Shown here one piece after another: positions 7,014 to 61,806 of a DNA stretch of 64,000 nt. The stretch is from Candidatus Dojkabacteria bacterium. Lineage in GTDB: Bacteria > Patescibacteriota > Dojkabacteria > J137. The DNA is taken from contig JBDTVZ010000003.1 in NCBI GenBank assembly GCA_040006935.1, positions 66,224 through 130,223 of the forward strand, given 5' to 3'. Position numbers and translations under genes: made by a program. Below the pieces are notes generated by a model, which made no database searches, was not told the origin of the DNA, and saw only the letters and a program-made list of their open reading frames with translations. The first letter of the stretch is position 1. Every line of letters starts with the position of its first letter.

Positions 7014-7194
7014 AGAATCTCTTTAACTTAAATTAAATGTTATTTCTATATTTTAACAGATTTATTGTTATTTAATAACATTACTGATTAAAAGTACATA
7101 ACGTTAAAACGTTGGAAATTTAGAACGTTATAAAGATTACCTCAACGTTTCCAATATTACAACTTTTAATTTTGTAACTTTTCAACGTGGGTTG
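7014..7194. promoter_or_regulatory. ftsA upstream region with four AACGTT palindromes and the motif TACATAACGTTAAAACGTT
   Basis: Repeated AACGTT hexamers are seen directly. A near-identical TACATAACGTT(T)AAAC word recurs at about 49722 in the sodA/apbE divergent region. Confidence 0.35.
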
Positions 7195-8253
7195 TTAAAT
7201 TCCAGAATATTTTTCTGTTCTAAAGTCTATTATGCTTAAGTTATTATACTCTCCACTAGAAATTAGTACATTTAAATCTCTAACCTGATCTAATGCTGGC
7301 CTACGTGGATAAAACAAAAGTTGTTTCCCTGTATCAGTATCAAATACAAAAGTATCCCCTGCTCGGTAATCAATATCAATAATATTTAATGGTATTTTCA
7401 AAATAAGTTCTTGTATTTTTAGAACGAACTCTATGCTTGTTTCGCTCACCTCCTCCCCTATTCCCGTTTTATCCAGAAGCCTTACTAAATCTGAGTAGAC
7501 TGATTGTGATACTACGGCTTGTGCTTGTTCAAAATATGCATTTATTTTTCCTTGTGCTTCACTTTTAAACATATCTATATATCTGTCTTTATCTTCTTTT
7601 GTTGCTTTAGACCAAAGATTCCCTGCGTCAATATTAGCTTGGTCTTCTTCAAATCTTTTTTTAACTGAAGGATCGTCTTCTTTAAGTTTTCCGTCTAGAG
7701 CTGATGATTCTTGTCCTGTGAGTTCTATTTTTGGTGCTGGCAAACTTCCCACTTCCATTGCCCTATTATTTAGAAGGCTTATTTTGTCCTTTGAAACTAC
7801 TACTACTACTGGAGTACTTTCTACAATATCTACTTTTATTAATCCTGTAATATCTTTAGAAACATATACGGCTAACACTTCTCCATACTTACTTTTTATG
7901 AGATTTTCTATTTCGCCAGGACGAATTTTTAAAATATTCTTACCCTTATAAACATCTAAAAGATTTAGAATATCTTTACTATCGACTCTAACAATACCTA
8001 CTATTTGAATATCTTGGACTAAAAATATTTTATCATTATTAAATAAGAAGATTCCGAATCCAGCGATAATGATAACTATTGCCATTAGGAAATATTTTTT
8101 AAGCGATCCTATTTTATCTGCAACATCTCCTGCCATATCTTTCAGAAGCAGTTTTCTCCTTTGCTTTTTATAATCAATTTTTGGTTCTTTATTCCTTCCA
8201 AACATACAACTCATATTACACGAGCATGAAGATGAAGTCATGATGAATATCAT
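7195..8253 (-). CDS. ftsQ: Cell division protein FtsQ/DivIB-like (POTRA domain)
   Basis: A short basic cytoplasmic tail and a single TM are followed by a POTRA-like beta region. The position upstream of ftsA-ftsZ matches the usual gene order. The listed ORF extends to 8358, but those extra 35 codons lie in a GC-rich repeat element and are probably not translated. Confidence 0.55.
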   Translation of the reverse strand: MIFIMTSSSCSCNMSCMFGRNKEPKIDYKKQRRKLLLKDMAGDVADKIGSLKKYFLMAIVIIIAGFGIFLFNNDKIFLVQDIQIVGIVRVDSKDILNLLDVYKGKNILKIRPGEIENLIKSKYGEVLAVYVSKDITGLIKVDIVESTPVVVVVSKDKISLLNNRAMEVGSLPAPKIELTGQESSALDGKLKEDDPSVKKRFEEDQANIDAGNLWSKATKEDKDRYIDMFKSEAQGKINAYFEQAQAVVSQSVYSDLVRLLDKTGIGEEVSETSIEFVLKIQELILKIPLNIIDIDYRAGDTFVFDTDTGKQLLFYPRRPALDQVRDLNVLISSGEYNNLSIIDFRTEKYSGI

Positions 8254-8462
8254 ATGTACAGGCCTGCCCTGAGCGTAGCCGAAGGGCTGAGATGTTTGGA
8301 GTATTTGCCCAGCTGTAAAATCCCCCGGCACTCCTGCCTGCCTCTGGCATGGTTGCAAAGGGAGAATTCCTCCTTTTTAAAGGAGGTGGCCAGCTTTAGC
8401 TGGACGGAGGATTTCTACCGCACCGAAAGCATGACAAAGATTTTGTGCGGTCCTTATTGGTA
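8254..8462. repeat. GC-rich repeat element copy A (core ctcctgcctgcctctggcatgg at 8331-8352) with several internal hairpins
   Basis: The segment is strongly GC-rich against the AT-rich genome. It shares the CTTGCCTGCC..TGGCATGG core with copies at 10303-10343 and 15535-15563. It contains the hairpins cctccttt/aaaggagg, ccagct/agctgg and ccgcac../gtgcgg. Confidence 0.6.
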
Positions 8463-10161: not shown

Positions 10162-10235
10162 TCGGAGAGTAGTTCAATTGGCTAGAATACGCGTTTTGGG
10201 AACGCGGGGTTGCAGGTTCGAGTCCTGTCTCTCCG
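10162..10235 (+). tRNA. tRNA-Pro (anticodon UGG)
   Basis: A manual cloverleaf fold works. The acceptor CGGAGAG/CUCUCCG pairs. The D-arm is GUUC..GAAU. The anticodon stem is CGCGU/ACGCG with loop UUUGGGA (U33, G37). The T-arm is GCAGG-UUCGAGU-CCUGU. The discriminator is A and no CCA is encoded. It is flanked by an extended inverted repeat, atcagagtcggagag...ctctccgactctgat. Confidence 0.8.
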
Positions 10236-10420
10236 ACTCTGATAATAGTAGTTCAACCCGCCTGTCCGCGCAGTCGGGCAGGTTGGTTAGAATACGCGTT
10301 TTGCTTGCCTGCCTCCTTGGCTGCCTTGGGCATGCTGGCATGGGGAACGCGGGGTTGTCGAGTCCTGTCTCTCCGATTTATTAACAATTCAGTCCTGTTT
10401 GCCTGCCAAAGGCAGGTTTC
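10236..10420 (+). pseudogene. Decayed tRNA-Pro paralog carrying GC-rich repeat element copy B, followed by a ttgcctgcc-aaa-ggcagg hairpin
   Basis: Direct alignment to the intact tRNA-Pro shows the D-loop segment agtagttcaa..ttggttagaatacgcgtttt. A 26-nt GC insert (cccgcctgtccgcgcagtcgggcagg) sits in the D-loop. A 40-nt insert (gcttgcctgcctccttggctgccttgggcatgctggcatg, 10303-10342) lies between anticodon-loop positions 34 and 35. There is a 5-nt deletion in the T-stem. The 3' end tcgagtcctgtctctccga is kept but no complementary 5' acceptor exists. Confidence 0.6.
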
Positions 10421-15487: not shown

Positions 15488-15500
15488 ACCTGTATTTGTG

Positions 15501-15641
15501 GTCATTGCGAGGAGGACTTATTGTGCCCTGCCCTGCTTGCCTGCCTTTGGCATGCTGGCATGGAGCGGAGTCGAAGGGTGGCAATCCCATTAGAAACCAA
15601 GTCCTTGGATTGCTTCTCAGTCTTAGACGGATCGCAATGAC
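15501..15641. repeat. GC-rich repeat element copy C, flanked by a 10-bp inverted repeat GTCATTGCGA/TCGCAATGAC; core gcttgcctgcctttggcatgctggcatgg at 15535-15563
   Basis: The GC-rich block shares the core with copies at 8331 and 10303. It is followed by agcggagtcgaagggtgg, which is also seen at 18806. A separate 26-nt perfect palindrome catgcctgactgc|gcagtcaggcatg lies at 15659-15684. Confidence 0.6.
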
Positions 15642-15722
15642 AACAAGAAATAGGCCGCCATGCCTGACTGCGCAGTCAGGCATGTAACACAGCTGGCGAT
15701 AATGTTGACTTCACAAGGGTAA

Positions 15723-21555: not shown

Positions 21556-21615
21556 TGGAGAGGTGGCTGAGTGGTTGTCAGCCAGAGGCTGATCCGCCTT
21601 TGGCGGAAAAGTGCT
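21556..21615 (+). pseudogene. tRNA-Ser 5'-half duplicate with a 29-nt GC-rich D-loop insertion (tcagccagaggctgatccgcctttggcgg)
   Basis: ggagaggtggctgagtggttg and aaagtgctcgtct are identical to the intact tRNA-Ser 5' half at 21651. The insert lies between them and similarity ends after the anticodon stem. Confidence 0.6.
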
Positions 21616-21650
21616 CGTCTTGGGTCAAGGTAATATTATGCATGTAAATT

Positions 21651-41958: not shown

Positions 41959-42756
41959 TTACAGCTTTCTGACTATTACAAAGTGGCTTATTCCAAAGAT
42001 GTGTAGGGGAGTTTTTTCTAGGAATAAGAAAGTTTTCTGAATAAGTTTCCCAACTAGTCCTAGCCTTCTTACTGCTCCGTCAAAACCTGGGAATATTTGA
42101 GTATATTTAACAAATTCTGAGTTTGAAGTAGATTTTTTTATCATATTTTTTAACTCAGAACCCCAATAACTTCGAACATGAGGTGCAAATTTCTTATAAA
42201 TAATATTAGGCATCCAAGGTAATAAAGGAATATTTCCCCAATAATATTTTCCCCCTAAAAACATTCCGTGCTGTTCAAAAGGCCATAATCTGTTAGGAGT
42301 AAAGAAGACCATAAGTCCACCTTTTTTCAGAACTCTGAAACATTCCTGAAGAGTTTTTAAATCAACTTGAACATGCTCCAGAACTTCGTTATGGAAAACT
42401 ATATCAAAAAAATCATCCTCAAAGACAAGGTTCTCTCCGGGGCAATTAACTATATTCTTTGGGTTAACGACTGACGGTTGACGGTCACCGTTTTCCCTTT
42501 TGCGCTTTCCTAGATCTTCTTTTAATTTTACAACTTGATCATTATCATATTCTGAACCATACACATTATCAAAACCTGAAAGTTTTGCAAATTCTTCTAA
42601 CCAAACTCCTTCTCCGCAGCCCATATCTAGAACCTTTTTATTTGAGAAATCTACATATTTTTTAATTAAATCTAACCTTCTTTGAAATCCAGCCGTAAAT
42701 GCTGTTCCCGGTTTTCCAAGGTGTGCAAATTTTGTGTGTTCAGACATTACTTTCAT
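41959..42756 (-). CDS. Class I SAM-dependent methyltransferase (with an in-frame GC-rich insertion)
   Basis: Motif I VLDMGCGEGVW. The GC-rich palindromic segment at 42462-42512 encodes KRKRENGDRQPSVVNP. Confidence 0.6.
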   Translation of the reverse strand: MKVMSEHTKFAHLGKPGTAFTAGFQRRLDLIKKYVDFSNKKVLDMGCGEGVWLEEFAKLSGFDNVYGSEYDNDQVVKLKEDLGKRKRENGDRQPSVVNPKNIVNCPGENLVFEDDFFDIVFHNEVLEHVQVDLKTLQECFRVLKKGGLMVFFTPNRLWPFEQHGMFLGGKYYWGNIPLLPWMPNIIYKKFAPHVRSYWGSELKNMIKKSTSNSEFVKYTQIFPGFDGAVRRLGLVGKLIQKTFLFLEKTPLHIFGISHFVIVRKL

Positions 42757-47478: not shown

Positions 47479-48662
47479 AAACTCAAATTCGGTTCTCTAT
47501 CAATCTCACCAAATTCTTTTGGATCAAGATAAACTTCCTTATTATTTTTCATTCTTAACTCGTCATTCGTAATTATATTTGCAACGATTCCAATCATCGC
47601 TGCATTATCCCCAGTTAGCTTATTTGAATATGGAAACCTAAGTTTAATATTTTTATTTAAAGATTTCCTAATTAGTGACCTCAATTGCGTACTTGCAACA
47701 ACTCCCCCCCCTAGCCAAATTTCTTTAGGATTATAAATCTTGACAGCTTTCTCTAGCTTAAGAACAACTTGCATTAAAGCTGCATGTTCAAAAACTACAC
47801 ATAAATCTTTAATCGTTTCTGAGTTTAAATTACTTTCTCCAAATTTTGAAATGAAATCTCTGAAGGCTGTTTTTAAACCAGAATAACTAAAGTTTAAATC
47901 ACCAGAATGTTGCATGGGAATTGGAAGGTTATATTCTTTTTGTGAATGAATATTTACACCTTTTACAATTACGCTCTGATTTTTATTAATAATTTCTAAT
48001 TTAATATTTTTTCTATTCTCTTTAGCAAATTTTGAAATTGTTGGACCTGCTGGATAACCAAGGCCTAAAAACCTTCCACATTTATCAAAGCATTCACCAC
48101 AAGCATCGTCTACAGTTTCTCCAATTTTTTTATACTTTCCAAAATCTTCTACAAGAATAAATTCAGTATGACCTCCAGAAACAAGAACACCAATTGCTGG
48201 GAATTGAGGTATTACTGCCCTCTCCTTTAGGAGAGGAGGGACCGCTTGCGGTGGGTGAGGTAATTTAGAGTTTCTTTCTGCAAAAGCAGAAAGTAAATGT
48301 CCCTCCATATGGTTCACATTTACTAAAGGTTTACTATATTTCTCTGCAAGTTCTTTTGCTTTTTTAATTCCTACCTCTAACGCTATTGCTAATCCTGGAC
48401 CTTTTGTAACTGCTATTGAATCTATTTCTTCGATTGTTTTCCCAGATCTCTTTAATGCTTCAATTACAACTGAATCTATTCTTTCTTGATGAGCTAATTT
48501 TGCAATGGATGGAACTACTCCACCGTATTGTTTATGTAAATCAATTTGAGACGGTTGGAAGTTAGACAGAACTGTATTTCCTAGCAAAACTGCAACAGAA
48601 GTTTCGTCACAAGAAGTGTCGATGGCGAGGATCAAGTTTTGTTTTTCTGGTAGAATTTGCAT
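47475..48662 (-). CDS. tsaD: tRNA N6-adenosine threonylcarbamoyltransferase TsaD (Kae1/YgjD)
   Basis: N-terminal ILAIDTSCDETSVAV and metal-binding HMEGHLLSAF (HxxxH), then VLVSGGHTEF. An approximately 16-aa GC-encoded insert (LPHPPQAVPPLLKERAV) precedes the conserved IPQFPAIGVLVSGGHTEF block. Confidence 0.88.
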   Translation of the reverse strand: MQILPEKQNLILAIDTSCDETSVAVLLGNTVLSNFQPSQIDLHKQYGGVVPSIAKLAHQERIDSVVIEALKRSGKTIEEIDSIAVTKGPGLAIALEVGIKKAKELAEKYSKPLVNVNHMEGHLLSAFAERNSKLPHPPQAVPPLLKERAVIPQFPAIGVLVSGGHTEFILVEDFGKYKKIGETVDDACGECFDKCGRFLGLGYPAGPTISKFAKENRKNIKLEIINKNQSVIVKGVNIHSQKEYNLPIPMQHSGDLNFSYSGLKTAFRDFISKFGESNLNSETIKDLCVVFEHAALMQVVLKLEKAVKIYNPKEIWLGGGVVASTQLRSLIRKSLNKNIKLRFPYSNKLTGDNAAMIGIVANIITNDELRMKNNKEVYLDPKEFGEIDREPNLSF

Positions 48663-52069: not shown

Positions 52070-52992
52070 TGATAAGAATTTTTTCCGGAACGGATAGCTT
52101 CGAAAGTTATTCCCTTGCAAAAAAACAAGCAGAAAAGTTAGCAGCGGATAATAACGAAGAAATTAAAATCCTTAATGCTAATGAGATTGATAATCCCGCA
52201 GAATTTATTCAATACATAGAAGGCGTAGGGATGTTTTCTGGTGGCTATATTGTTTTTCTAAAAAGACTTTCCGGAAATAAAAAACTACTAGACTATTTTA
52301 GTGATAATTACGATAAATTAAAAATTTATAATATTATTTTATGGGAAGAATCAAAATTAGATGGAAGGCTTAAATTCTTTCTTAAATTAAAAAAAGATAA
52401 CGGCTCCTTTACTTTCGATTTACCTAATGACCGAGATTTAAAAGCTTGGTTAAACAAAGAAGCTAAAGACAAAGGAATTAAATTTTCAGACTTTCAACTT
52501 AATATTCTAATTGAAAACCTCGGAATAGATAAGTGGAGGTTAATTAATGAGTTAGAAAAAATATCAATCTACCTTTCCGCAGAACAAAAAGATTCTTTGG
52601 GAAATGATGAATTTAACAAAATAGTAGGTTTCGAAGTTTCTGGAGATATTTGGAAACTAGTCGATGCTTTTAGTAATAGAAGATCGAAAGAATGTTTAGA
52701 AGAATACTCTAAAATTTCGTCTTTTGAAGATAATGGACAGTATATTATTGCAATGATGGAAAGAGAATTATCTAATCTTGCTCTGCTTCATTTTGCGAAG
52801 AGAGAAGGCTTGCAGGATAATGAAATTGGTATGCACCCTTTTGTTTTACAGAAATTAAAAGCAAAGGTTAGAAATTTTAGCTTAATCGATATAAATAAAT
52901 ACCTTAAAAAGCTATTTGATTTAGATAGATCTATAAAAAATGGTGATATTGATGAAAAGGTTGGTTTGAGCTTGTATATACTCTCGCTTTGA
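52069..52992 (+). CDS. holA: DNA polymerase III delta subunit-like (HolA)
   Basis: N-terminal IRIFSGTDSFESYSL resembles the delta N-terminal block. Size is about 300 aa. Confidence 0.5.
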   Translation: MIRIFSGTDSFESYSLAKKQAEKLAADNNEEIKILNANEIDNPAEFIQYIEGVGMFSGGYIVFLKRLSGNKKLLDYFSDNYDKLKIYNIILWEESKLDGRLKFFLKLKKDNGSFTFDLPNDRDLKAWLNKEAKDKGIKFSDFQLNILIENLGIDKWRLINELEKISIYLSAEQKDSLGNDEFNKIVGFEVSGDIWKLVDAFSNRRSKECLEEYSKISSFEDNGQYIIAMMERELSNLALLHFAKREGLQDNEIGMHPFVLQKLKAKVRNFSLIDINKYLKKLFDLDRSIKNGDIDEKVGLSLYILSL

Positions 52993-53002
52993 AGAATAAG
53001 CT

Positions 53003-53082
53003 GGACCGCCCACACCATGAATTACTTCCGGGGCGGTATGACCTCTCCCTAACCCTCTCCTTAAAAGGAGAGGGAATCGGAC
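53003..53082. repeat. GC-rich double hairpin (gaccgcc..ggggcgg and ccctctcc-ttaaaa-ggagaggg) downstream of holA
   Basis: The hairpin ccctctcc/ggagaggg is the same sequence as the in-frame insertion in tsaD (48218-48240). Confidence 0.5.
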
Positions 53083-53104
53083 CCTTCGTTTTCTCAAACC
53101 TTTA

Positions 53105-54328
53105 GTGTACAATATACATATGAAGAAATCATTTATTTTCTTTACAACTTTAATTCTACTTTGTTCCTTTCTACAAACTAAGGTTTCTGCTCTAACCGTA
53201 ATTTCCAGAGACACTATTGGAATTGAGAAAGCAATTACAAAAGATGATTTAGCATTCAGTCTTCCTCAAGAAATTGTTGTTGCTCCAATTTTCCTTGGAG
53301 TAGAAAGCAGTAAAATCTCTCAAAAAGAGTGGGTGGAATCTCTTTATTACTACACTATACAAAAACTTGGCTTTACCGACTTACCATTTCATTACATAGT
53401 TTCAACTACAGGAGAAGTCTACCAGGGAAATTTGGGTGGCGATGAGAGAAAGGTAAATGTAGAAGGAATTGGTTCAAATGTAATTTTAATTGCATATTTA
53501 GCAAACGGAAAACAAAATACATTTGATTCTAAATCCGATGACTCATTACAGAATTTGTTACTCACTGTTGCGAATAAGAATTCGATTAAACCTGAAAATA
53601 TTGTAGCAAGTGGAGTTAAATTTATTAGAGATAAAGAAAACAAAACAATTCATATACAATCTAGCGAAATATTTGGTAACTGGGCAGCAAAATTAGAAGA
53701 CTATAAAGGATTTGTAGCAGCAAACTACTCTCCTCAACCAAAATCTTACACTGTAGAAGTTAGTAACCTTGCTCTTTCATCAGTAGAAGCACTACCCGGC
53801 GAAGAAGTTACAGGAACAATTACTGTAAAAAACACTGGGGACAATGGATTATATGGTGGAACGGATAATGAAATAGTTGCTACAAAAGCAGATGGGGGTT
53901 CGAGTCAATTCTTTATTAACAATGTATGGTTATCTAGAAGTCAATTTAGTTTAATGGCGGAAAATCAGAATATTCTTCCAAAACAAGAGACAGCTCTTAA
54001 CTTTAAAATTAAAGCTCCTCTTGCAAAAGGTGATATTGGTGAGGATTTTATTTTAAAAACTTTAGGTGGTGGAGATATTTCTGCTGCACCAATTACTTTA
54101 AAGTTAACACTAAAACCTTCCGATAAAAGAATTATTCAAATTCAAAATACTGAGCTTGGATATTTAAAAGTTAGGGGCGAACCTTCTACTTTAGGAGCGG
54201 AAATCGGCCAAGCAGCAAGCGGAGAAAGATATTTTGTAGTAGAAGATGCAGGGAATGGATATTTAAGAATAGATTTAGGAAATGGATCAACAGGTTGGGT
54301 TGCAGGATGGCTAGTTAATGATATTTAA
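53105..54328 (+). CDS. Secreted N-acetylmuramoyl-L-alanine amidase (Amidase_2/PGRP-like) with a C-terminal SH3b domain
   Basis: Signal peptide. GFTDLPFHYIVSTTGEVYQGN matches the amidase_2 block. C-terminal LGYLKVRGEPSTLGAEIGQ...GWVAGWLV is SH3b-like. Confidence 0.45.
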   Translation: MYNIHMKKSFIFFTTLILLCSFLQTKVSALTVISRDTIGIEKAITKDDLAFSLPQEIVVAPIFLGVESSKISQKEWVESLYYYTIQKLGFTDLPFHYIVSTTGEVYQGNLGGDERKVNVEGIGSNVILIAYLANGKQNTFDSKSDDSLQNLLLTVANKNSIKPENIVASGVKFIRDKENKTIHIQSSEIFGNWAAKLEDYKGFVAANYSPQPKSYTVEVSNLALSSVEALPGEEVTGTITVKNTGDNGLYGGTDNEIVATKADGGSSQFFINNVWLSRSQFSLMAENQNILPKQETALNFKIKAPLAKGDIGEDFILKTLGGGDISAAPITLKLTLKPSDKRIIQIQNTELGYLKVRGEPSTLGAEIGQAASGERYFVVEDAGNGYLRIDLGNGSTGWVAGWLVNDI

Positions 54329-56785: not shown

Positions 56786-57396
56786 GATAATTCCTGAAAT
56801 CTAAAACAATCCTCTGTATGATCCATAACAAGCCCTGTTGCTTGCATATGTGCATACATGATTGTTGATCCTACAAATTTAAAACCTCTTTTAATTAAGT
56901 CTTTAGAAAGTGCATCCGATTCTTTTGAATTTGCGGGAATTTCTTTTGGAGTTTTCCAATGATTAATAATTGGTTTATTATTTACAAAAGACCAAATGTA
57001 TTTAGAAAAACTTCCGTATTCATTTTGAATTTCTAAAAACAATTTTGCATTATTTATTTCAGACCTTATCTTTAATTTATTTCTAATTATTTCTGGATTT
57101 AATAAAAGTTCTTGAAATTTACTCACATCATATTTTGCAACTTTACTAACATCAAAATTTGCGAACGCTTTTCTATAACCTTCTCTTCTTTTTAAAATCG
57201 TACTCCAACTTAATCCTGCTTGAGCCCCCTCTAAAATTAAAAACTCAAAGTGAATTTTATCATCATGAATAGGAACTCCCCATTCCGTATCGTGATATTT
57301 AATCATTTCATCGAAAGAATTTTGTACCCAAAAGCAGCGTGAACGATTCCCCTCTTCAGAGGGGATTAAGGGGTGTGTTTCATTCAACTTTTTCAT
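56782..57396 (-). CDS. tag: DNA-3-methyladenine glycosylase I (Tag)
   Basis: RCFWV..YHDTEWGVP...EGAQAGLSWSTIL are Tag motifs. The roughly 19-aa N-terminal extension is encoded partly by a GC hairpin at 57349-57364. Confidence 0.8.
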   Translation of the reverse strand: MKKLNETHPLIPSEEGNRSRCFWVQNSFDEMIKYHDTEWGVPIHDDKIHFEFLILEGAQAGLSWSTILKRREGYRKAFANFDVSKVAKYDVSKFQELLLNPEIIRNKLKIRSEINNAKLFLEIQNEYGSFSKYIWSFVNNKPIINHWKTPKEIPANSKESDALSKDLIKRGFKFVGSTIMYAHMQATGLVMDHTEDCFRFQELS

Positions 57397-57760
57397 ATTC
57401 TTCTATCCAAACAATTATCGTTTGCAAAATATTATTAATATTACTTTTTACACTGTGATCGCTAAATCTAATAAGATTGATTCCTATAGCCAAAAGTTCT
57501 TTCTCTCTTTTAAGATCATAATCAAATTTATCTTCGTTATGACTATTCCCATCAATCTCAATAGCCAATTTTAATTCAGAACAATAGAAATCTACAATAT
57601 AGTTTCCAATAGGCCTTTGTCTATGAAAATCAAAACCTAATAGTTTTTTATTTCTAATTTCTTTCCATAATAAAACCTCAGAAAGTGTACTTTTATTTCT
57701 GAGGTTTCTTGCTAACTGTTTAAGTTTAGGGTTGTAAGGAATTATTTCTCTCATGAACAC
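57380..57760 (-). CDS. DUF559 (Vsr-like endonuclease domain) protein
   Basis: LRNKSTLSEVLLWKEIRNKKLLGFDFHRQRPIGNYIVDFYC...IEIDGNSH matches DUF559. Confidence 0.65.
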   Translation of the reverse strand: MFMREIIPYNPKLKQLARNLRNKSTLSEVLLWKEIRNKKLLGFDFHRQRPIGNYIVDFYCSELKLAIEIDGNSHNEDKFDYDLKREKELLAIGINLIRFSDHSVKSNINNILQTIIVWIEEYEKVE

Positions 57761-57838: not shown

Positions 57839-58993
57839 TTAAACTTCTCTTCTTAAAGGCATTAGAAGATGCATAAACTTCTCATCACCCAAGTCTCTAA
57901 AAACGGAAGCAGATAGAGCACCCTTAGTCTCAAATTTGAGCTTATCTCCAGAGATGTGCGCAACAATATCTTGTAAATATCTCAAATTATATGCTGCATT
58001 TAAATCACTTTCCCCTTCTATGTTTTCCACTTGAATAATAGTTTCGTTTTCCCCAACATCTGCAACACTAGATTTTAATTTAACTTGTTTATTTTCCAAA
58101 TCTAAATCAAATAAAGTTTTATAAGCTAAATTGCTTCTCGCAAAAGTACTAATTACTTTTATTGCAGATTCAAACTCTTTTTTTTCCACATCAAATGTAT
58201 AGCTTGAAGAGTCTGGAAGAATTCTTTTATAGTCTGGATAAGGTCCTTCTAAAAGCCTCACGCTAAATTCAATTTCTTCAATTTTAAAAATTATTTGTGA
58301 TTTGTTCTCACTCAGGTAAACATCTACAGCCTCTACCTCGCTCATATCACTAACTATTTTCATCATTTCTTGAAGATATTTTGCGGGAACAATAATTTGT
58401 TGTGTTGTTAATTCTTTATTTAATTCCTTAACTTTAATTTCTCTTTTTGAAAGTCTAAAACCATCTAAACCTATTAAATTTATTGATTTAGAATCTTCAT
58501 CCGCTGAAACTTCAAATAAAACTCCTGTTTGTTGTATTTTTCCTGGACTCATATCTGTTGAGCAACTGAAAATAACTTTGTCTAAACTCTTTAAAAGTTC
58601 TTCCGAATCAATAGAAAAAAATTTAGTTTCAGTTACCTTTGGTAAAACAGGATACTCTGCGGCTGGAATTGTATTAAAGTTTGCTTTAGATTTACTCGTT
58701 TTAACATTCAAAACAGTATCCTTTAGCTCAAGCTCAACATTATCTGAAGTAGATGCTGATACAAAATCAGCAAGGAATTTTGCTGATACAGTAATGCTTC
58801 CCTCTGTTTCAACTACTCCAGGTATCCACACATTTATCCCCATGTCTAAGTTAGTTGCAGATAGTTTAAGGTCGTTTTTAGTAACGTCCAATTTAACATT
58901 GGAGAGAATTGGGATATTTGGTTTGGAACTCACTGCCCTACTTGCATAATTCAAAAGTTTGGAGAGTTTTTCATGATTTAAGGTTATCTTCAT
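57839..58993 (-). CDS. dnaN: DNA polymerase III beta sliding clamp
   Basis: Three-domain beta-clamp pattern; N-terminal MKITLNHEKLSKLLNYASRAV; length 384 aa. Confidence 0.85.
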   Translation of the reverse strand: MKITLNHEKLSKLLNYASRAVSSKPNIPILSNVKLDVTKNDLKLSATNLDMGINVWIPGVVETEGSITVSAKFLADFVSASTSDNVELELKDTVLNVKTSKSKANFNTIPAAEYPVLPKVTETKFFSIDSEELLKSLDKVIFSCSTDMSPGKIQQTGVLFEVSADEDSKSINLIGLDGFRLSKREIKVKELNKELTTQQIIVPAKYLQEMMKIVSDMSEVEAVDVYLSENKSQIIFKIEEIEFSVRLLEGPYPDYKRILPDSSSYTFDVEKKEFESAIKVISTFARSNLAYKTLFDLDLENKQVKLKSSVADVGENETIIQVENIEGESDLNAAYNLRYLQDIVAHISGDKLKFETKGALSASVFRDLGDEKFMHLLMPLRREV

Positions 58994-59267
58994 ACTTAAT
59001 ATTTAATAAGTAGTAATTAATAGCATTAGGGACTGTAGATATGTGTAAAACTTTGTAAATTCCATTTATTATAACAGCTTCCGGAGGGTTTTTGAACTGT
59101 GGATAATCCATGTGTATAGTTTCGGCTAGAAATAGGTCAAAATCAGTTAAGAGGTAAGAATTAAGAGTTAAAATTTTGTGTATTATCTCAAGGGGATAAA
59201 AGGATAAGTTAATAAAATTTCAGTAAGCAAACCCTTTTCATGTGTGGAGAAGTTTTAAAAAACTGAT
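58994..59267. promoter_or_regulatory. AT-rich region with DnaA boxes (perfect TGTGGATAA at 59098-59106; partial boxes at about 59245), a candidate oriC segment
   Basis: The 9-mer box is seen directly. The region is AT-rich and lies between dnaN and yidD. Confidence 0.45.
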
Positions 59268-59558
59268 CTATATATCTGTGTTTCTTTTTATAGAAAAGTG
59301 TTTAGGTACAGGGTCATAGCCGCCTTCTGCCATAGGATTGCATCTTAGTATTCTAAAAAATCCCATAATACTTCCTCTTATTAATCCAAAGCGATCAACT
59401 GCCTCGTAAGTATATTGCGAACAGGAAGGTTCGTGAATACAAACTCTGTAATCAATATACTTAGCCCAGAAAGAATGATCAAAAGAAAATAGTTTTTGAT
59501 AAATCCTAATTAAAAATTTACCTATGTTTTTTGGAATGTTAAAAATAAATCTAATCAT
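59268..59558 (-). CDS. yidD: Membrane protein insertion efficiency factor YidD
   Basis: [10 protein letters not shown]...[46 protein letters not shown]. Confidence 0.8.
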
Positions 59559-60240
59559 TGTTTTCTGTTATAACAAATATTTTATCAACTGGAATGTCAC
59601 CTGCTCTGACTATAGGTTTAAAGGTAAATATTTTAAAAATTTTAAGACCTACTTTTTCTATTCTTTCTTTTAACTCCTCTTCAGTGAAATAGTTTGTATA
59701 AGTCTCTAATTTCTCTGAAACTTTCAAACGAGGATCTTGTGAAGTTAAATAAGGTTCTTCTTCAAATCCCTTAAACGTGCCTTTGTGACCAGACATTAAA
59801 AATAAACCATTTTTTACTAATATTCTTTTAATTTCTTTAAAAAGTTCATCGACTTCTTCATCCGGTATATGGATTATGGAAAAGCCTGCAATTATAGAAC
59901 CAACAGAATTAGCATCTAAAGTCTTCAAATACGTAAGCATCTCTTCCTTTACAATTTTTAAACTATTGTCTTTAAACCTTTCTTTCAATATTTCGCAAAA
60001 CTCAGGAACAAACTCAACTGCTGTAATATTTTTTAAATTATTATCATACAAATATTTAATATAATTACCAGGACCACTTCCTAAATCTAAAATTTCTCGA
60101 TTTTCCAAGTGCCTTCTTTTTAGTAATTCAATAAATAGATCAACCGCTTCGAAATTATCAAAGTCATTACCAAAATCTTCGAAGTAAAGGCCTGCAATTT
60201 TTGAGTAATCATCTTTTGTCTTCGCTCTTTTCTTATCCAT
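59551..60240 (-). CDS. Class I SAM-dependent methyltransferase
   Basis: Motif [16 protein letters not shown]. Confidence 0.55.
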
Positions 60241-60408
60241 ATTTGAATTATAGCCTTTTTTATTATTTTACTGATAAATTTTTATTATAAGTTATCCACA
60301 TGGATAACTTTCTGATGTATAATTCTTAAGACTTCTGGAAAAACTTAGCTATCTTATATTATTAAAGATCAATAATTCTAAAATTGATCTTAATTTAAAT
60401 TTTTTTAA
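60241..60408. promoter_or_regulatory. dnaA upstream region with palindromic DnaA box pair gTTATCCACAtggataac (60291-60308), candidate oriC/dnaA promoter
   Basis: A perfect TTATCCACA is directly abutted by a near-perfect inverted copy. A gatcaataattctaaaattgatc inverted repeat follows. Confidence 0.5.
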
Positions 60409-61806
60409 ATGAAAATAACGGATCCCAAACAACTTTGGAAAGTATCTTTAGCGCAAATAGAAATTAAATTAGACGCCCCAGCTCAATTCAAAATGTTTTT
60501 CCAGGATACAAAGTTATTAAAAGTTGATGGAAAGCTTGCTGTTATTGGAGTTCCAAATCCATATACATCTGAATGGTTAAAATCGAGATACGAAAATCTT
60601 ATTAGGGATACTTTAACCTACGTTTACGGGGACACCTTAAACCCCATGTTTGAAGTTTATCAAAAGGAAATAGTAAACGATATTCAAAATGAAAACTCGT
60701 CGCCACTACTCACAATGCAAAACGGTGTTATGGGAAGTGTTATCGACTTAGTTTCGAAAGCTGGTTTAAATCCAAAATATTCTATGTCTAATTATATAAT
60801 TGGAAATTCAAATCGAATTGGCCATGCTGCTGCGCTTGCAGTTATTGATAAACCAGGAATGTCCTACAACCCTTTGTTTGTTTACGGAAAAACTGGCGTT
60901 GGGAAAACACATTTATCTCAAGCAATTGGGCGATCTATTTTGGAAAGAAATTTAAAATCGAAAATTCTTTACGTTTCCTCAGAAGGTTTTTTAAACGACA
61001 TGGTTAAAGGAATTAAAACAGGAAGCCAGGAAAAAATTCGACAAAAATATCGACAAATAGATATTTTAATAATCGATGACATGCAGTTAATTTCTAGGTG
61101 GGTAAGTACTCAAACAGAATTTTTTAATACCTTCAACGAACTTTATAATGCAGGGAAACAAGTAATTTTAATTGCAGATAGAAGACCAGAAGATATTCAA
61201 AATTTAGAATCAAGACTTCGTTCTCGAATGCAAGGTGGAATGGTTGTTGAGATAGCCCAGCCAGATTACGAAACAAGGCTTGCGATTTTACAAAGAAAAG
61301 CAGATTCTTCCGGCTTCACATTAAAACAACAAATTCTAGAATTTATTGCAAAAGCTGTTAATGATAATGTTCGAGAACTCGAAGGTGCTCTACAAAAAGT
61401 TGCCCTATTTAATCAAATGAAACCAGGAGGAGATTTAACTTTAGAAGAAGTTGCACACACTATTGGACGTGATGCAAAAACAAGAAGAGAACAAATCAAA
61501 GTCCCTAAAGTTTTAAAAGAAGTTTGTAGATCTTTTGGAGTTACAGCGAAAGATTTAAAAGGACCAAGTAGGACAAAAGAATTAGCTTTGGCAAGACAAG
61601 TAGCAATGTTTATACTAAGAGAAGAATTCAATTACAAATTAGAAGAGATTGCAAAATTTTTAAATAGGCAGGATCATACTACTGTGATTCATGCGATAGA
61701 TAAAATTAAAAGTAAGATGATGATTCAAGAAGGATTTAATACTCAAGTTTCTCATATAATTACTGCGATACAAGAGGCTGCTGCAGTAAGTGATGATTTT
61801 GAATAA
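60409..61806 (+). CDS. dnaA: Chromosomal replication initiator DnaA
   Basis: AAA+ Walker A GKTGVGKTHL, box VII, and the C-terminal DnaA-box-binding HTH (..RQVAMFILREEFNYKLEEIAKFLNRQDHTTVIHA). Confidence 0.93.
   Translation: MKITDPKQLWKVSLAQIEIKLDAPAQFKMFFQDTKLLKVDGKLAVIGVPNPYTSEWLKSRYENLIRDTLTYVYGDTLNPMFEVYQKEIVNDIQNENSSPLLTMQNGVMGSVIDLVSKAGLNPKYSMSNYIIGNSNRIGHAAALAVIDKPGMSYNPLFVYGKTGVGKTHLSQAIGRSILERNLKSKILYVSSEGFLNDMVKGIKTGSQEKIRQKYRQIDILIIDDMQLISRWVSTQTEFFNTFNELYNAGKQVILIADRRPEDIQNLESRLRSRMQGGMVVEIAQPDYETRLAILQRKADSSGFTLKQQILEFIAKAVNDNVRELEGALQKVALFNQMKPGGDLTLEEVAHTIGRDAKTRREQIKVPKVLKEVCRSFGVTAKDLKGPSRTKELALARQVAMFILREEFNYKLEEIAKFLNRQDHTTVIHAIDKIKSKMMIQEGFNTQVSHIITAIQEAAAVSDDFE

Follow-up and report, generated by a model that had tools for sequence, protein, structure and literature searches.

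A BoxC-type GC-rich repeat in a surface loop of TsaD in a Dojkabacteria genome

The window analysed here is a 64-kb stretch of the 213.5-kb contig JBDTVZ010000003.1 (assembly GCA_040006935.1, positions 66,224 to 130,223 of the forward strand) from a Candidatus Dojkabacteria bacterium of the Candidate Phyla Radiation (CPR), and it is the region of this genome that our analysis covered. The guanine-plus-cytosine (GC) content of the window is 32.8%. Its tsaD gene contains a 43-nt GC-rich element (62.5% GC over the 40 nt from 48220 to 48259), and two related elements were located in the same window, one between holA and the following gene, and one at the 5' end of tag (Table 1). An initial annotation, made from the sequence alone, had described GC-rich hairpins inserted in frame in tsaD, a methyltransferase gene, tag, and ftsQ. 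For comparison we used loci from CPR genomes, all picked via tsaD and amounting to about 1.33 Mb of related DNA. Perfect G/C-rich hairpins occupied 7 distinct sites in the window, versus 0-4 matches in first-order Markov shuffles, and the pattern CCTCTCC-N3-8-GGAGAGG was found twice (48219 and 53054), versus 0.00 times expected from 100 dinucleotide shuffles.

Table 1. Positions of the elements and genes discussed, in window coordinates.
Feature	Position	Strand	Basis or remark
BoxC/triplex-motif (TM)-type element within tsaD	48218..48260	+ (antisense to tsaD)	sequence, local GC, predicted hairpins, third-block detection
C-block CCCTCTCC	48218-48225	+	
loop TTTA	48226-48229	+	
G-block 1 GGAGAGG	48230-48236	+	
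linker AGGG	48237-48240	+	
mini-hairpin ACCGCTTGCGGT	48241-48252	+	
G-block 2 GGGTGAGG	48253-48260	+	mirrors G-block 1
tsaD, 395 aa	47475..48662	-	Pfam TsaD PF00814, E = 4.3e-74
intergenic BoxC/TM type-A-like copy	53042..53074	-	sequence, fold, third block
second GC hairpin of the holA-spacer cluster, ACCGCCC...GGGGCGGT, 7-bp stem	53005..53037	+	fold
small TM-type element, tag 5' end	57348..57375	+ (antisense to tag)	sequence, hairpin census, third block
tag, DNA-3-methyladenine glycosylase I, 204 aa	56782..57396	-	Pfam Adenine_glyco, residues 23-199
methyltransferase loop (KRKRENGDRQPSVVNP)	42462..42512	-	named in the initial annotation; repeat-family membership not shown
GC-rich hairpin cluster, rpsO terminator to true ftsQ start (ATG 8205)	8255..8440	-	sequence, homologue starts

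Elements in tsaD, the holA spacer, and tag

The plus strand of the tsaD element reads CCCTCTCC-TTTA-GGAGAGG-AGGG-ACCGCTTGCGGT-GGGTGAGG. Its perfect stem is 7 bp (CCTCTCC/GGAGAGG), the eighth pair being a C-A mismatch. On the minus strand the element is read in frame as LPHPPQAVPPLLKERAV and then IPQFPAIGVLVSGGHTEF, the peptide across the region contains ...NSKLPHPPQAVPPLLKERAVIPQ..., and the element encodes LPHPPQAVPPLLKER(AV), of which LPHPPQAVPPLLKER makes up residues 134-148 of TsaD. The Pfam TsaD match was broken into two stretches at this insert. Residues 134-148 sit between a helix (118-127, HMEGH...) and a strand (156-161, ..GVLVSGGHTE), and an AlphaFold2 model of the protein (mean predicted local distance difference test score, pLDDT, 83.5) fell below 50 exactly at these residues, with no secondary structure between the helix and the strand. 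Judged from this model, the element-encoded loop is probably disordered.

The window protein was then aligned with 24 TsaD homologues (25 in total). The loop from HMEGH to SGGHTE was 39 aa long in the window protein versus 26-28 aa in its four closest relatives, which were 70-74% identical to it overall and 71-76% identical outside the loop. A basal loop of 26-31 aa was found across CPR in 75 further tsaD loci taken from genomes, and among 111 Dojkabacteria-like TsaD proteins the loop ranged from 25 to 74 aa, mostly by AT-rich K/N/S expansions. The segment corresponded to a 19-20-residue gap in solved TsaD structures (E. coli 4ydu and others). Moreover, the syntenic contig L004, from a close relative, had no GC segment in tsaD and none in the holA spacer. 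Together, the loop lengths, the L004 locus, the structural gap, and the predicted disorder indicated that the tsaD segment is a lineage-specific addition to a surface loop. The initial annotation had described a GC hairpin in frame just before the SGGHTE block, which was borne out, and the checks it had proposed against orthologues and against TsaD structures came out as it expected. At the protein level, TsaD loops of three other homologues (P0068, P0109, and P0029) also carried segments of repeat-derived appearance, for example ...VTLSEVEGQQ and HSPQPTAHSPLPIAHTS.

The second copy lies in a 127-nt spacer, from the holA stop at 52992 to the conserved ATG at 53120 of an SH3_3-domain gene (ORF, or open reading frame, 53105-54328). 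On the minus strand it reads CCCTCTCC-TTTTAA-GGAGAGGG-TTA-GGGAGAGG; the layout is that of type A, in blocks of 8 nt, and no such copy is present in the orthologous L004 spacer. Its fold gave z = -2.9, with the third block at offset 3, and the fold of 52995-53100 gave z = -3.0, none of 200 shuffles being as good. The plus-strand hairpin of this copy, CCCTCTCC-TTAAAA-GGAGAGGG, is present at 53053-53074 as initially reported. It had also been called identical to the hairpin in tsaD; the sequence is indeed shared, but the perfect stem in tsaD is 7 bp and not 8. A tblastn match in L004 that reached into the GC element upstream of the SH3 gene was discarded, as the DNA alignment did not support it.

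The third copy, of 28 nt, reads TCCCCTC-TTCA-GAGGGGA-TTA-AGGGGTG, with 7-nt blocks and the third block at offset 3. Its hairpin (57348-57365) spans codons 11-17 of the Tag ORF, in agreement with the earlier placement of a hairpin in an N-terminal extension: the window protein has 20 residues before the conserved Cys21, versus 3-5 in homologues. No ATG, GTG, or TTG start was found between the hairpin and Cys21, and the candidate starts (ATG at codon 1 and TTG at codon 4) are both upstream of the hairpin. A Dojkabacteria Tag protein (P0199, 79% identity) has a similar extension, MKHTPNPSQEGNYTR. A DUF559 gene (Vsr-like endonuclease fold, 57380-57760) adjoins the tag hairpin and ends 17 nt inside the annotated tag start.

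Relation to the BoxC/PIT/TMECO repeats

The repeat called BoxC, and then PIT, has been known in E. coli since the 1990s, and its function and mechanism of mobility are not established (PMC4666352). Holder et al. 2015 (PMC4666352) defined it as the intrastrand triplex motif TMECO, with the pattern CCCTCNCCC-N3-6-GGGNGAGGG-N3-GGGNGAGGG and blocks of 9 nt. They counted 23 copies in E. coli MG1655, which were "always located intergenically", and a total of 3610 across 262 proteobacterial genomes, the strict motif coming from Proteobacteria and other G/C-rich triplex motifs occurring in cyanobacteria. The same authors linked the motif to local genomic instability, noted no associated transposase and no known promoter or terminator activity, and did not detect the E. 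coli triplex in vivo. The E. coli motif described by Kaplan et al. 2016 (PMC5100583) as a "G-quadruplex-hairpin-duplex switch" appears to be the same as TMECO, as both G-block words occur there.

Triplex-type motifs were recognised by a C-rich block, a G-block that is its Watson-Crick complement, and a second G-block that is mirror-symmetric to the first (class II, C-G*G). All three window copies showed this arrangement, and their third blocks had 0 mismatches when T was allowed opposite A. The blocks were CCTCTCC / GGAGAGG / GGTGAGG in tsaD, CCCTCTCC / GGAGAGGG / GGGAGAGG(T) in the intergenic copy, and TCCCCTC / GAGGGGA / AGGGGTG in tag. The intergenic and tag copies fall within ITxF, a looser definition that takes blocks of 6-15 nt and loops of 1-6 nt, their loop lengths being 6 and 3, and 4 and 3, respectively. 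For the window segment 53030-53090, matches to unannotated DNA were obtained in 4075 of the 5426 E. coli genomes; identity was 83-87% across 38-41 nt, with E-values of 0.009-0.4 for this short query, and the single E. coli site inspected was the mrcB-hrpB spacer, which holds a BoxC pair.

The tsaD segment is a copy of a dispersed repeat of the BoxC/PIT/TMECO kind, in a variant with an extra short hairpin in loop 2. The window copies and BoxC/TMECO have the same three-block design and near-identical words, CCCTCTCC(C) / GG(G)AGAGGG / GGGTGAGG(G) or GGGAGAGG, and the intergenic copy has the type-A second loop TTA. Both are dispersed and non-coding, have no associated mobility gene, and differ in presence or absence between relatives. 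The differences are the AT-rich first loop of the window copies, the 12-nt hairpin within loop 2 of the tsaD copy, the AT-rich CPR host, and the location, as the tsaD and tag copies (two of the three in the window) are in coding sequence and the third is intergenic. While the kind of repeat is known, its presence in a CPR host, its occurrence in coding sequence, where one TsaD loop is used repeatedly, and the variant with a hairpin in the loop are new here. The identity of the family and the third, mirror-symmetric G-block after each hairpin had been missed in the initial annotation.

The hairpin-bearing variant was searched for in metagenomes using the pattern AGAGGRGGGACC-N6-36-GGTGGGTGAGG, which was derived from the window and from two further CPR loci, L001 and L085. 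The pattern was found in at least 120 metagenome contigs, mostly from soil and peat, with contig GC of 39-71%, and had 0 matches in viral contigs. Among the matches listed, 136 instances were analysed. Their flanks were constant, in part because the search pattern fixes them. The inner hairpin, in contrast, comprised 80 distinct sequences with 32 distinct perfect-stem prefixes, and its pairing beyond the fixed ACC/GGT averaged 3.2 bases versus 0.5 in shuffles. Many of the listed metagenome copies were inverted doublets, 80-230 bp apart.

Recurrence in other genomes and origin of the copies

At least four other CPR genomes had related elements in this TsaD loop, some in one orientation and some in the other, and in different frames. 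In L001 (GCA_964607415.1) the element is CCTCACCC-[ACCAGCC TAAA GGCTGGT]-CCCC-CCTCTCC-TGCC-AGGAGAAGG-GTTGAGGG; it has the loop and orientation of the window copy, and CCTCACCC is read CC-TCA-CCC, not CCT-CAC-CC. Three assemblies made independently of one another have this allele, and one of the contigs was seen in 18 samples, so that it is not an assembly artefact, at least for L001. The L085 element, ACCTCACCC-CAT-CCCTCTCC..AGAGGGG-GG-ACCGC..GCGGT-GGGTGAGGT, is up to about 90 nt long; its two hairpins come in the opposite order to those of the window copy, with a GCCTGCC/GGCAGGC hairpin nested inside the element. L010 has the variant CCTTCCCT-CA-AGGGAAGG in the same loop and carries a further copy, CCTCACTCC...CCCTCTCC-CA-GGAGAGGG, in another of the TsaD loops, and L037 (Amesbacteria) has CCACCCCCC-AC-CCCCCTCC-TATTTTA-GGAGGGGG in the same loop. 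Outside tsaD, a methyltransferase gene of L208 (2561-3391) contains an in-frame three-way element of the same design, CATCCCCCT-CAA-TCCCCC-TTCAAA-GGGGGA-A-GCCCGTCAGGGC-AGGGGGATG, in the same loop that was flagged in the window methyltransferase. Every coding copy examined was open and in frame (window tsaD, L001, L085, both L010 copies, L037, L208, and tag).

The insert-bearing TsaD proteins were only 48-64% identical to one another, yet each had closer insert-free relatives; L206 TsaD, for instance, shares 93% identity with the L001 protein outside the loop but has no such element. The initial annotation had asked for insert-free alleles in related genomes, and L004 and L206 supply them. It had also named the finding that would make the segment ancestral, namely unrelated orthologues that share the peptide at this position; instead, elements elsewhere were in other frames or orientation, and the closest relatives were without one. 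The different frames, both orientations, and the patchy distribution argue that the events were repeated and that no single peptide was inherited. In the 1.33 Mb of CPR DNA, nearly all perfect-stem triplex-type hairpins that fell inside long ORFs were in tsaD, a count that is biased because all loci were chosen through tsaD, and the copy in the L208 methyltransferase loop may point to any tolerant loop rather than a tsaD-specific hot spot. A literature search on CPR bacteria and palindromic or GC-rich insertions returned nothing relevant.

Two other features of these tsaD genes were observed. First, L206 tsaD has a clean 96-nt (32-codon) GC-rich triple-hairpin insert (about 7133-7228) with AATAA on both sides; it is absent from the L001 gene and belongs to an element family distinct from BoxC. 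Second, the LLSAFAER codons just upstream of the window insertion site (48274-48293) form an 8-bp perfect inverted repeat, CTTTCTGC-TTTT-GCAGAAAG, those of L001 (about 10355-10380) form one of 8 bp as well, and the LLSSFARQK codons of L206 form a 13-bp perfect inverted repeat, CCTTTTGTCTAGC-TTT-GCTAGACAAAAGG (alignment A7, columns about 353-381). The sequences of the upstream palindromes differ among the window, L001, and L206, and the symmetry is kept. An upstream hairpin as a general trait of tsaD was rejected, the mean best stem being 4.05 versus 4.0 in control windows for 75 tsaD loci, and only the window, L001, and L206 stood out.

From these results we consider it likely that a copy of a BoxC/triplex-type repeat lies in a tolerant loop of TsaD. 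The copy would have entered, or replaced part of, the length-variable surface loop between the metal-binding HMEGH helix and the SGGHTE strand. Having stayed open and in frame, it would be translated as a proline-rich, probably disordered loop of 15-17 residues that is tolerated, and the same process would have placed the small copy in the 5' end of tag and the near-canonical copy between holA and the next gene. The coding copies would then be survivors, as such events could happen anywhere and persist only where a loop accepts 10-25 extra residues. The peptide would be made and harmless. We infer that single-strand hairpin intermediates give rise to new copies, by insertion or by ectopic recombination, with no dedicated transposase.

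Several points weigh against this account. None of the window copies has the strict TMECO pattern, as their blocks are 7-8 nt and not 9 (CCCTCTCCT, for example, breaks at the ninth base), and loop 2 of the tsaD copy, at about 16 nt with its own hairpin, exceeds the ITxF limit of 6. Triplex formation by the window copies, whose hairpin folding is computed, is putative, and even for E. coli it was not detected in vivo by Holder et al. (PMC4666352). No clear target-site duplications or terminal repeats were found at the window copy: a single closing inverted-repeat arm is present, the flanks are AT-rich, and no target-site duplication is unambiguous. The L001 and L206 genes differ over a diverged stretch of about 100 nt, longer than the element, which resembles replacement of a segment more than clean insertion. 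A single ancient insertion that was later lost precisely many times and inverted once is a formal possibility. Lastly, a scan of 61 of the 62 selected window ORFs of at least 90 aa detected no transposase and no REP-associated tyrosine transposase (RAYT), the unscanned ORF being an FtsK orthologue by synteny; covering 64 kb only, this absence is weak evidence.

Among the alternatives, the one that fares best, though we think it unlikely, is a miniature inverted-repeat transposable element (MITE), or an element of the repetitive extragenic palindrome (REP/REPIN) type, that is moved in trans by a transposase whose gene lies at another place in the genome or in a host or partner bacterium. A closing inverted repeat, CCTCACCC...GGGTGAGG, is found in the complete copies of L085 and L001, and in L085 it extends to 13 bp (AATTCGACCTCAC/GTGAGGTCGAATT). 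The inverted doublets among the listed metagenome copies are REPIN-like, presence or absence differs between close relatives, and the separate 96-nt insert of L206 tsaD is cleanly flanked by AATAA. However, the window copy is without one closing arm and without a clear target-site duplication, the scanned window ORFs held no transposase or RAYT domain, the hairpin variant was absent from viral contigs, and in E. coli no transposase has been linked to BoxC (PMC4666352).

Somewhat less probable still is growth in place by template-switch (quasi-palindrome) mutation at replication forks, a process that completes and lengthens inverted repeats, in which case the shared words would reflect convergence on a stable triplex or hairpin. 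The palindromic coding sequences just upstream (8 bp in the window and L001, 13 bp in L206), the freedom with which the inner hairpin varies while its pairing is kept, and the replaced rather than interrupted stretch of about 100 nt between L001 and L206 are all in keeping with it, as is the local instability that Holder et al. tie to these motifs (PMC4666352). The replaced stretch and the adjoining palindromes would likewise fit a local replacement through ectopic recombination. Convergence of this kind is hard to reconcile with near-identical strings of 20-30 nt (for example GGGACCGC..GCGGTGGGTGAGGT) common to genomes whose TsaD proteins are only 54-58% identical, and found in GC-rich soil bacteria as well; nor was there a general hairpin excess at this position in the 75 tsaD loci.

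A lineage-specific variant of a hypervariable loop, with a high GC content that came about by chance or because a Pro/Gly-rich peptide was selected, would need no repeat at all. The loop does vary from 25 to 74 aa among the 111 Dojkabacteria-like proteins, mostly in AT-rich K/N/S, and several insert-bearing proteins share a "PHPP"-like peptide. Yet the specific three-block motif is also intergenic in the same window, where its hairpin pattern was expected 0.00 times, and it turns up again in E. coli as well as on at least 120 contigs from metagenomes. The frame and orientation in which the shared DNA words are read change from one genome to another, and the peptides with them, and local GC is 62% versus 33% overall. 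This explanation is largely refuted and we regard it as very improbable. Removal or bypass of the insert at the RNA or translation level, leaving the protein unaffected, is scarcely credible: the element is strongly structured and CPR bacteria do have rRNA-gene insertions that are removed after transcription, but every coding copy examined was open and in frame, as expected if translated, and there was no Rfam match and no intron-like feature.

The BoxC-type copies could belong to a cross-phylum family that is still moving or being regenerated, independently of a transposase, through single-strand hairpins or triplexes, with a site preference for the TsaD loop in CPR bacteria; we offer this only as a speculative extension with a low chance of being right. 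On this reading, at least five lineages may have acquired a copy in the loop after HMEGH on separate occasions, perhaps steered there by the local coding palindrome.

Other GC-rich segments and related repeat systems

The initial annotation had generalised to in-frame, tolerated insertions of a repeat in essential genes, which held for tsaD and tag, was only weakly backed for the methyltransferase, and failed for ftsQ; the repeated insertions seen in the TsaD loop of other CPR genomes strengthen it. The methyltransferase loop is indeed longer in the window, with 33 aa versus 21 in the syntenic L004 orthologue (12-14 aa longer). Loops of its relatives were 14-40 aa long, five of them having 34 aa with partly similar sequence. 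Folding of the segment did not surpass that of shuffled sequence (z = -1.2 and -0.9). BoxC words were absent from it, and no second copy was found in the 1.3 Mb of related DNA. The case for this segment as a repeat is weak. For ftsQ, the maximal, POTRA_1-bearing ORF (7195-8358, minus strand) does open with 35 GC-rich codons, as had been noted. Both the database copy of FtsQ (336 aa) and the nearest homologue (44% identity) start at residue 52 of the ORF, and the GC cluster at this site is therefore intergenic; the supposed GC-rich N-terminus is an artefact of reading the longest ORF.

Additional GC-rich hairpins were observed in the window. Directly after tRNA-Pro(TGG) (10163-10237) there is a degraded second copy (10238-10375) whose 5' end is missing and which has two GC-rich hairpin inserts, CCCGCCTGTCCGCGCAGTCGGGCAGG in the D-loop and the 40-nt insert CTTGCCTGCCTCCTTGGCTGCCTTGGGCATGCTGGCATGG in the anticodon loop; neither ARAGORN nor Rfam called it a tRNA. 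Upstream of tRNA-Ser(CGA), a duplicate of the 5' half of that tRNA (21557-21625) has a 30-nt double-hairpin insert in its D-loop (TCAGCC-AGA-GGCTGA and TCCGCC-TTT-GGCGGA). A second GC-rich repeat family, CCTGCCTGCC...GGCATGCTGGCATGG, is found at 8329-8360, 10312-10343, and 15532-15563, with up to 91% identity between copies. GCCTGCC/GGCAGG hairpins and a perfect 26-nt palindrome, CATGCCTGACTGCGCAGTCAGGCATG, occupy the sites 10402-10416 and 15659-15684. The copies of the second family, the GCCTGCC hairpins, and the palindrome are all in intergenic GC islands, and the GCCTGCC/GGCAGGC hairpin of these islands is the one also nested in the tsaD element of L085. A 200-nt GC-rich intergenic stretch (15490-15690), closed by TCATTGCGA...TCGCAATGA, looks like a structured RNA or a repeat cluster and had no Rfam match at E up to 1. 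The 26 nt at 8262-8287, with the hairpin GCCCTGAGCGTAGCCGAAGGGC, are 96% identical to a stretch in L203, a soil metagenome contig of 63% GC; going by this match, GCCCTGAGCGTAGCCGAAGGGC would be another "cosmopolitan" GC-rich hairpin word in an AT-rich genome. At the gathering threshold Rfam gave no family across the window; the region 8-16 kb was empty even at E up to 1, and 12 element-bearing loci had no match either. The dnaN (minus) and dnaA (plus) genes are divergent (57839-61806) and the cumulative GC skew has its minimum near 58-60 kb, which together indicate that the replication origin is probably inside the window.

The elements also resemble other short repeats. Yeast mitochondrial GC clusters and fungal mitochondrial double-hairpin elements are short GC-rich palindromes in very AT-rich genomes, sometimes lying in coding or rRNA sequence and sometimes nested. 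They share with the present elements the short GC-rich palindromic modules and the AT-rich setting, and differ in being organellar, in having other sequences, and in lacking a triplex-type third block. REP and REPIN sequences are likewise short imperfect palindromes, to which the inverted doublets listed from metagenomes can be compared; REPs, however, are extragenic, largely species-specific, and accompanied by a RAYT gene, which was not among the ORFs scanned in the 64-kb window, whereas the words of the present family are common across phyla. As summarised in PMC10969869, the Rickettsia palindromic elements (RPEs; Ogata et al. 2000) are palindromic repeats lying in frame in unrelated conserved genes of a small AT-rich genome, at fold-compatible positions. 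By that description RPEs are about 100-150 bp long, make up families specific to Rickettsia in which the encoded peptide is conserved, and do not belong to the triplex type, while the window elements are 28-43 nt and their peptide varies with frame and orientation; the two are set apart here by description and not by sequence. From the same source, intragenic ERIC and other small mobile sequences of enterobacteria form in-frame ORF fusions (Delihas 2007), a likewise occasional fusion of an intergenic-type repeat within ORFs, with ERIC described there as another sequence family of about 127 bp.

These findings have several implications. The reach of the BoxC family extends far beyond Proteobacteria and Cyanobacteria, its copies are gained and lost on short evolutionary time scales, and coding copies persist at places where the protein can accommodate a disordered loop. 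Unusual Pro/Gly-rich inserts in proteins of CPR bacteria may be remnants of repeats and not functional features, and intergenic repeat clusters can give rise to false N-terminal extensions, as in the ftsQ case. If the transposase-independent reading is true, the window/L004 and L001/L206 pairs would be the first natural before-and-after material for a repeat that has been an orphan for 30 years.

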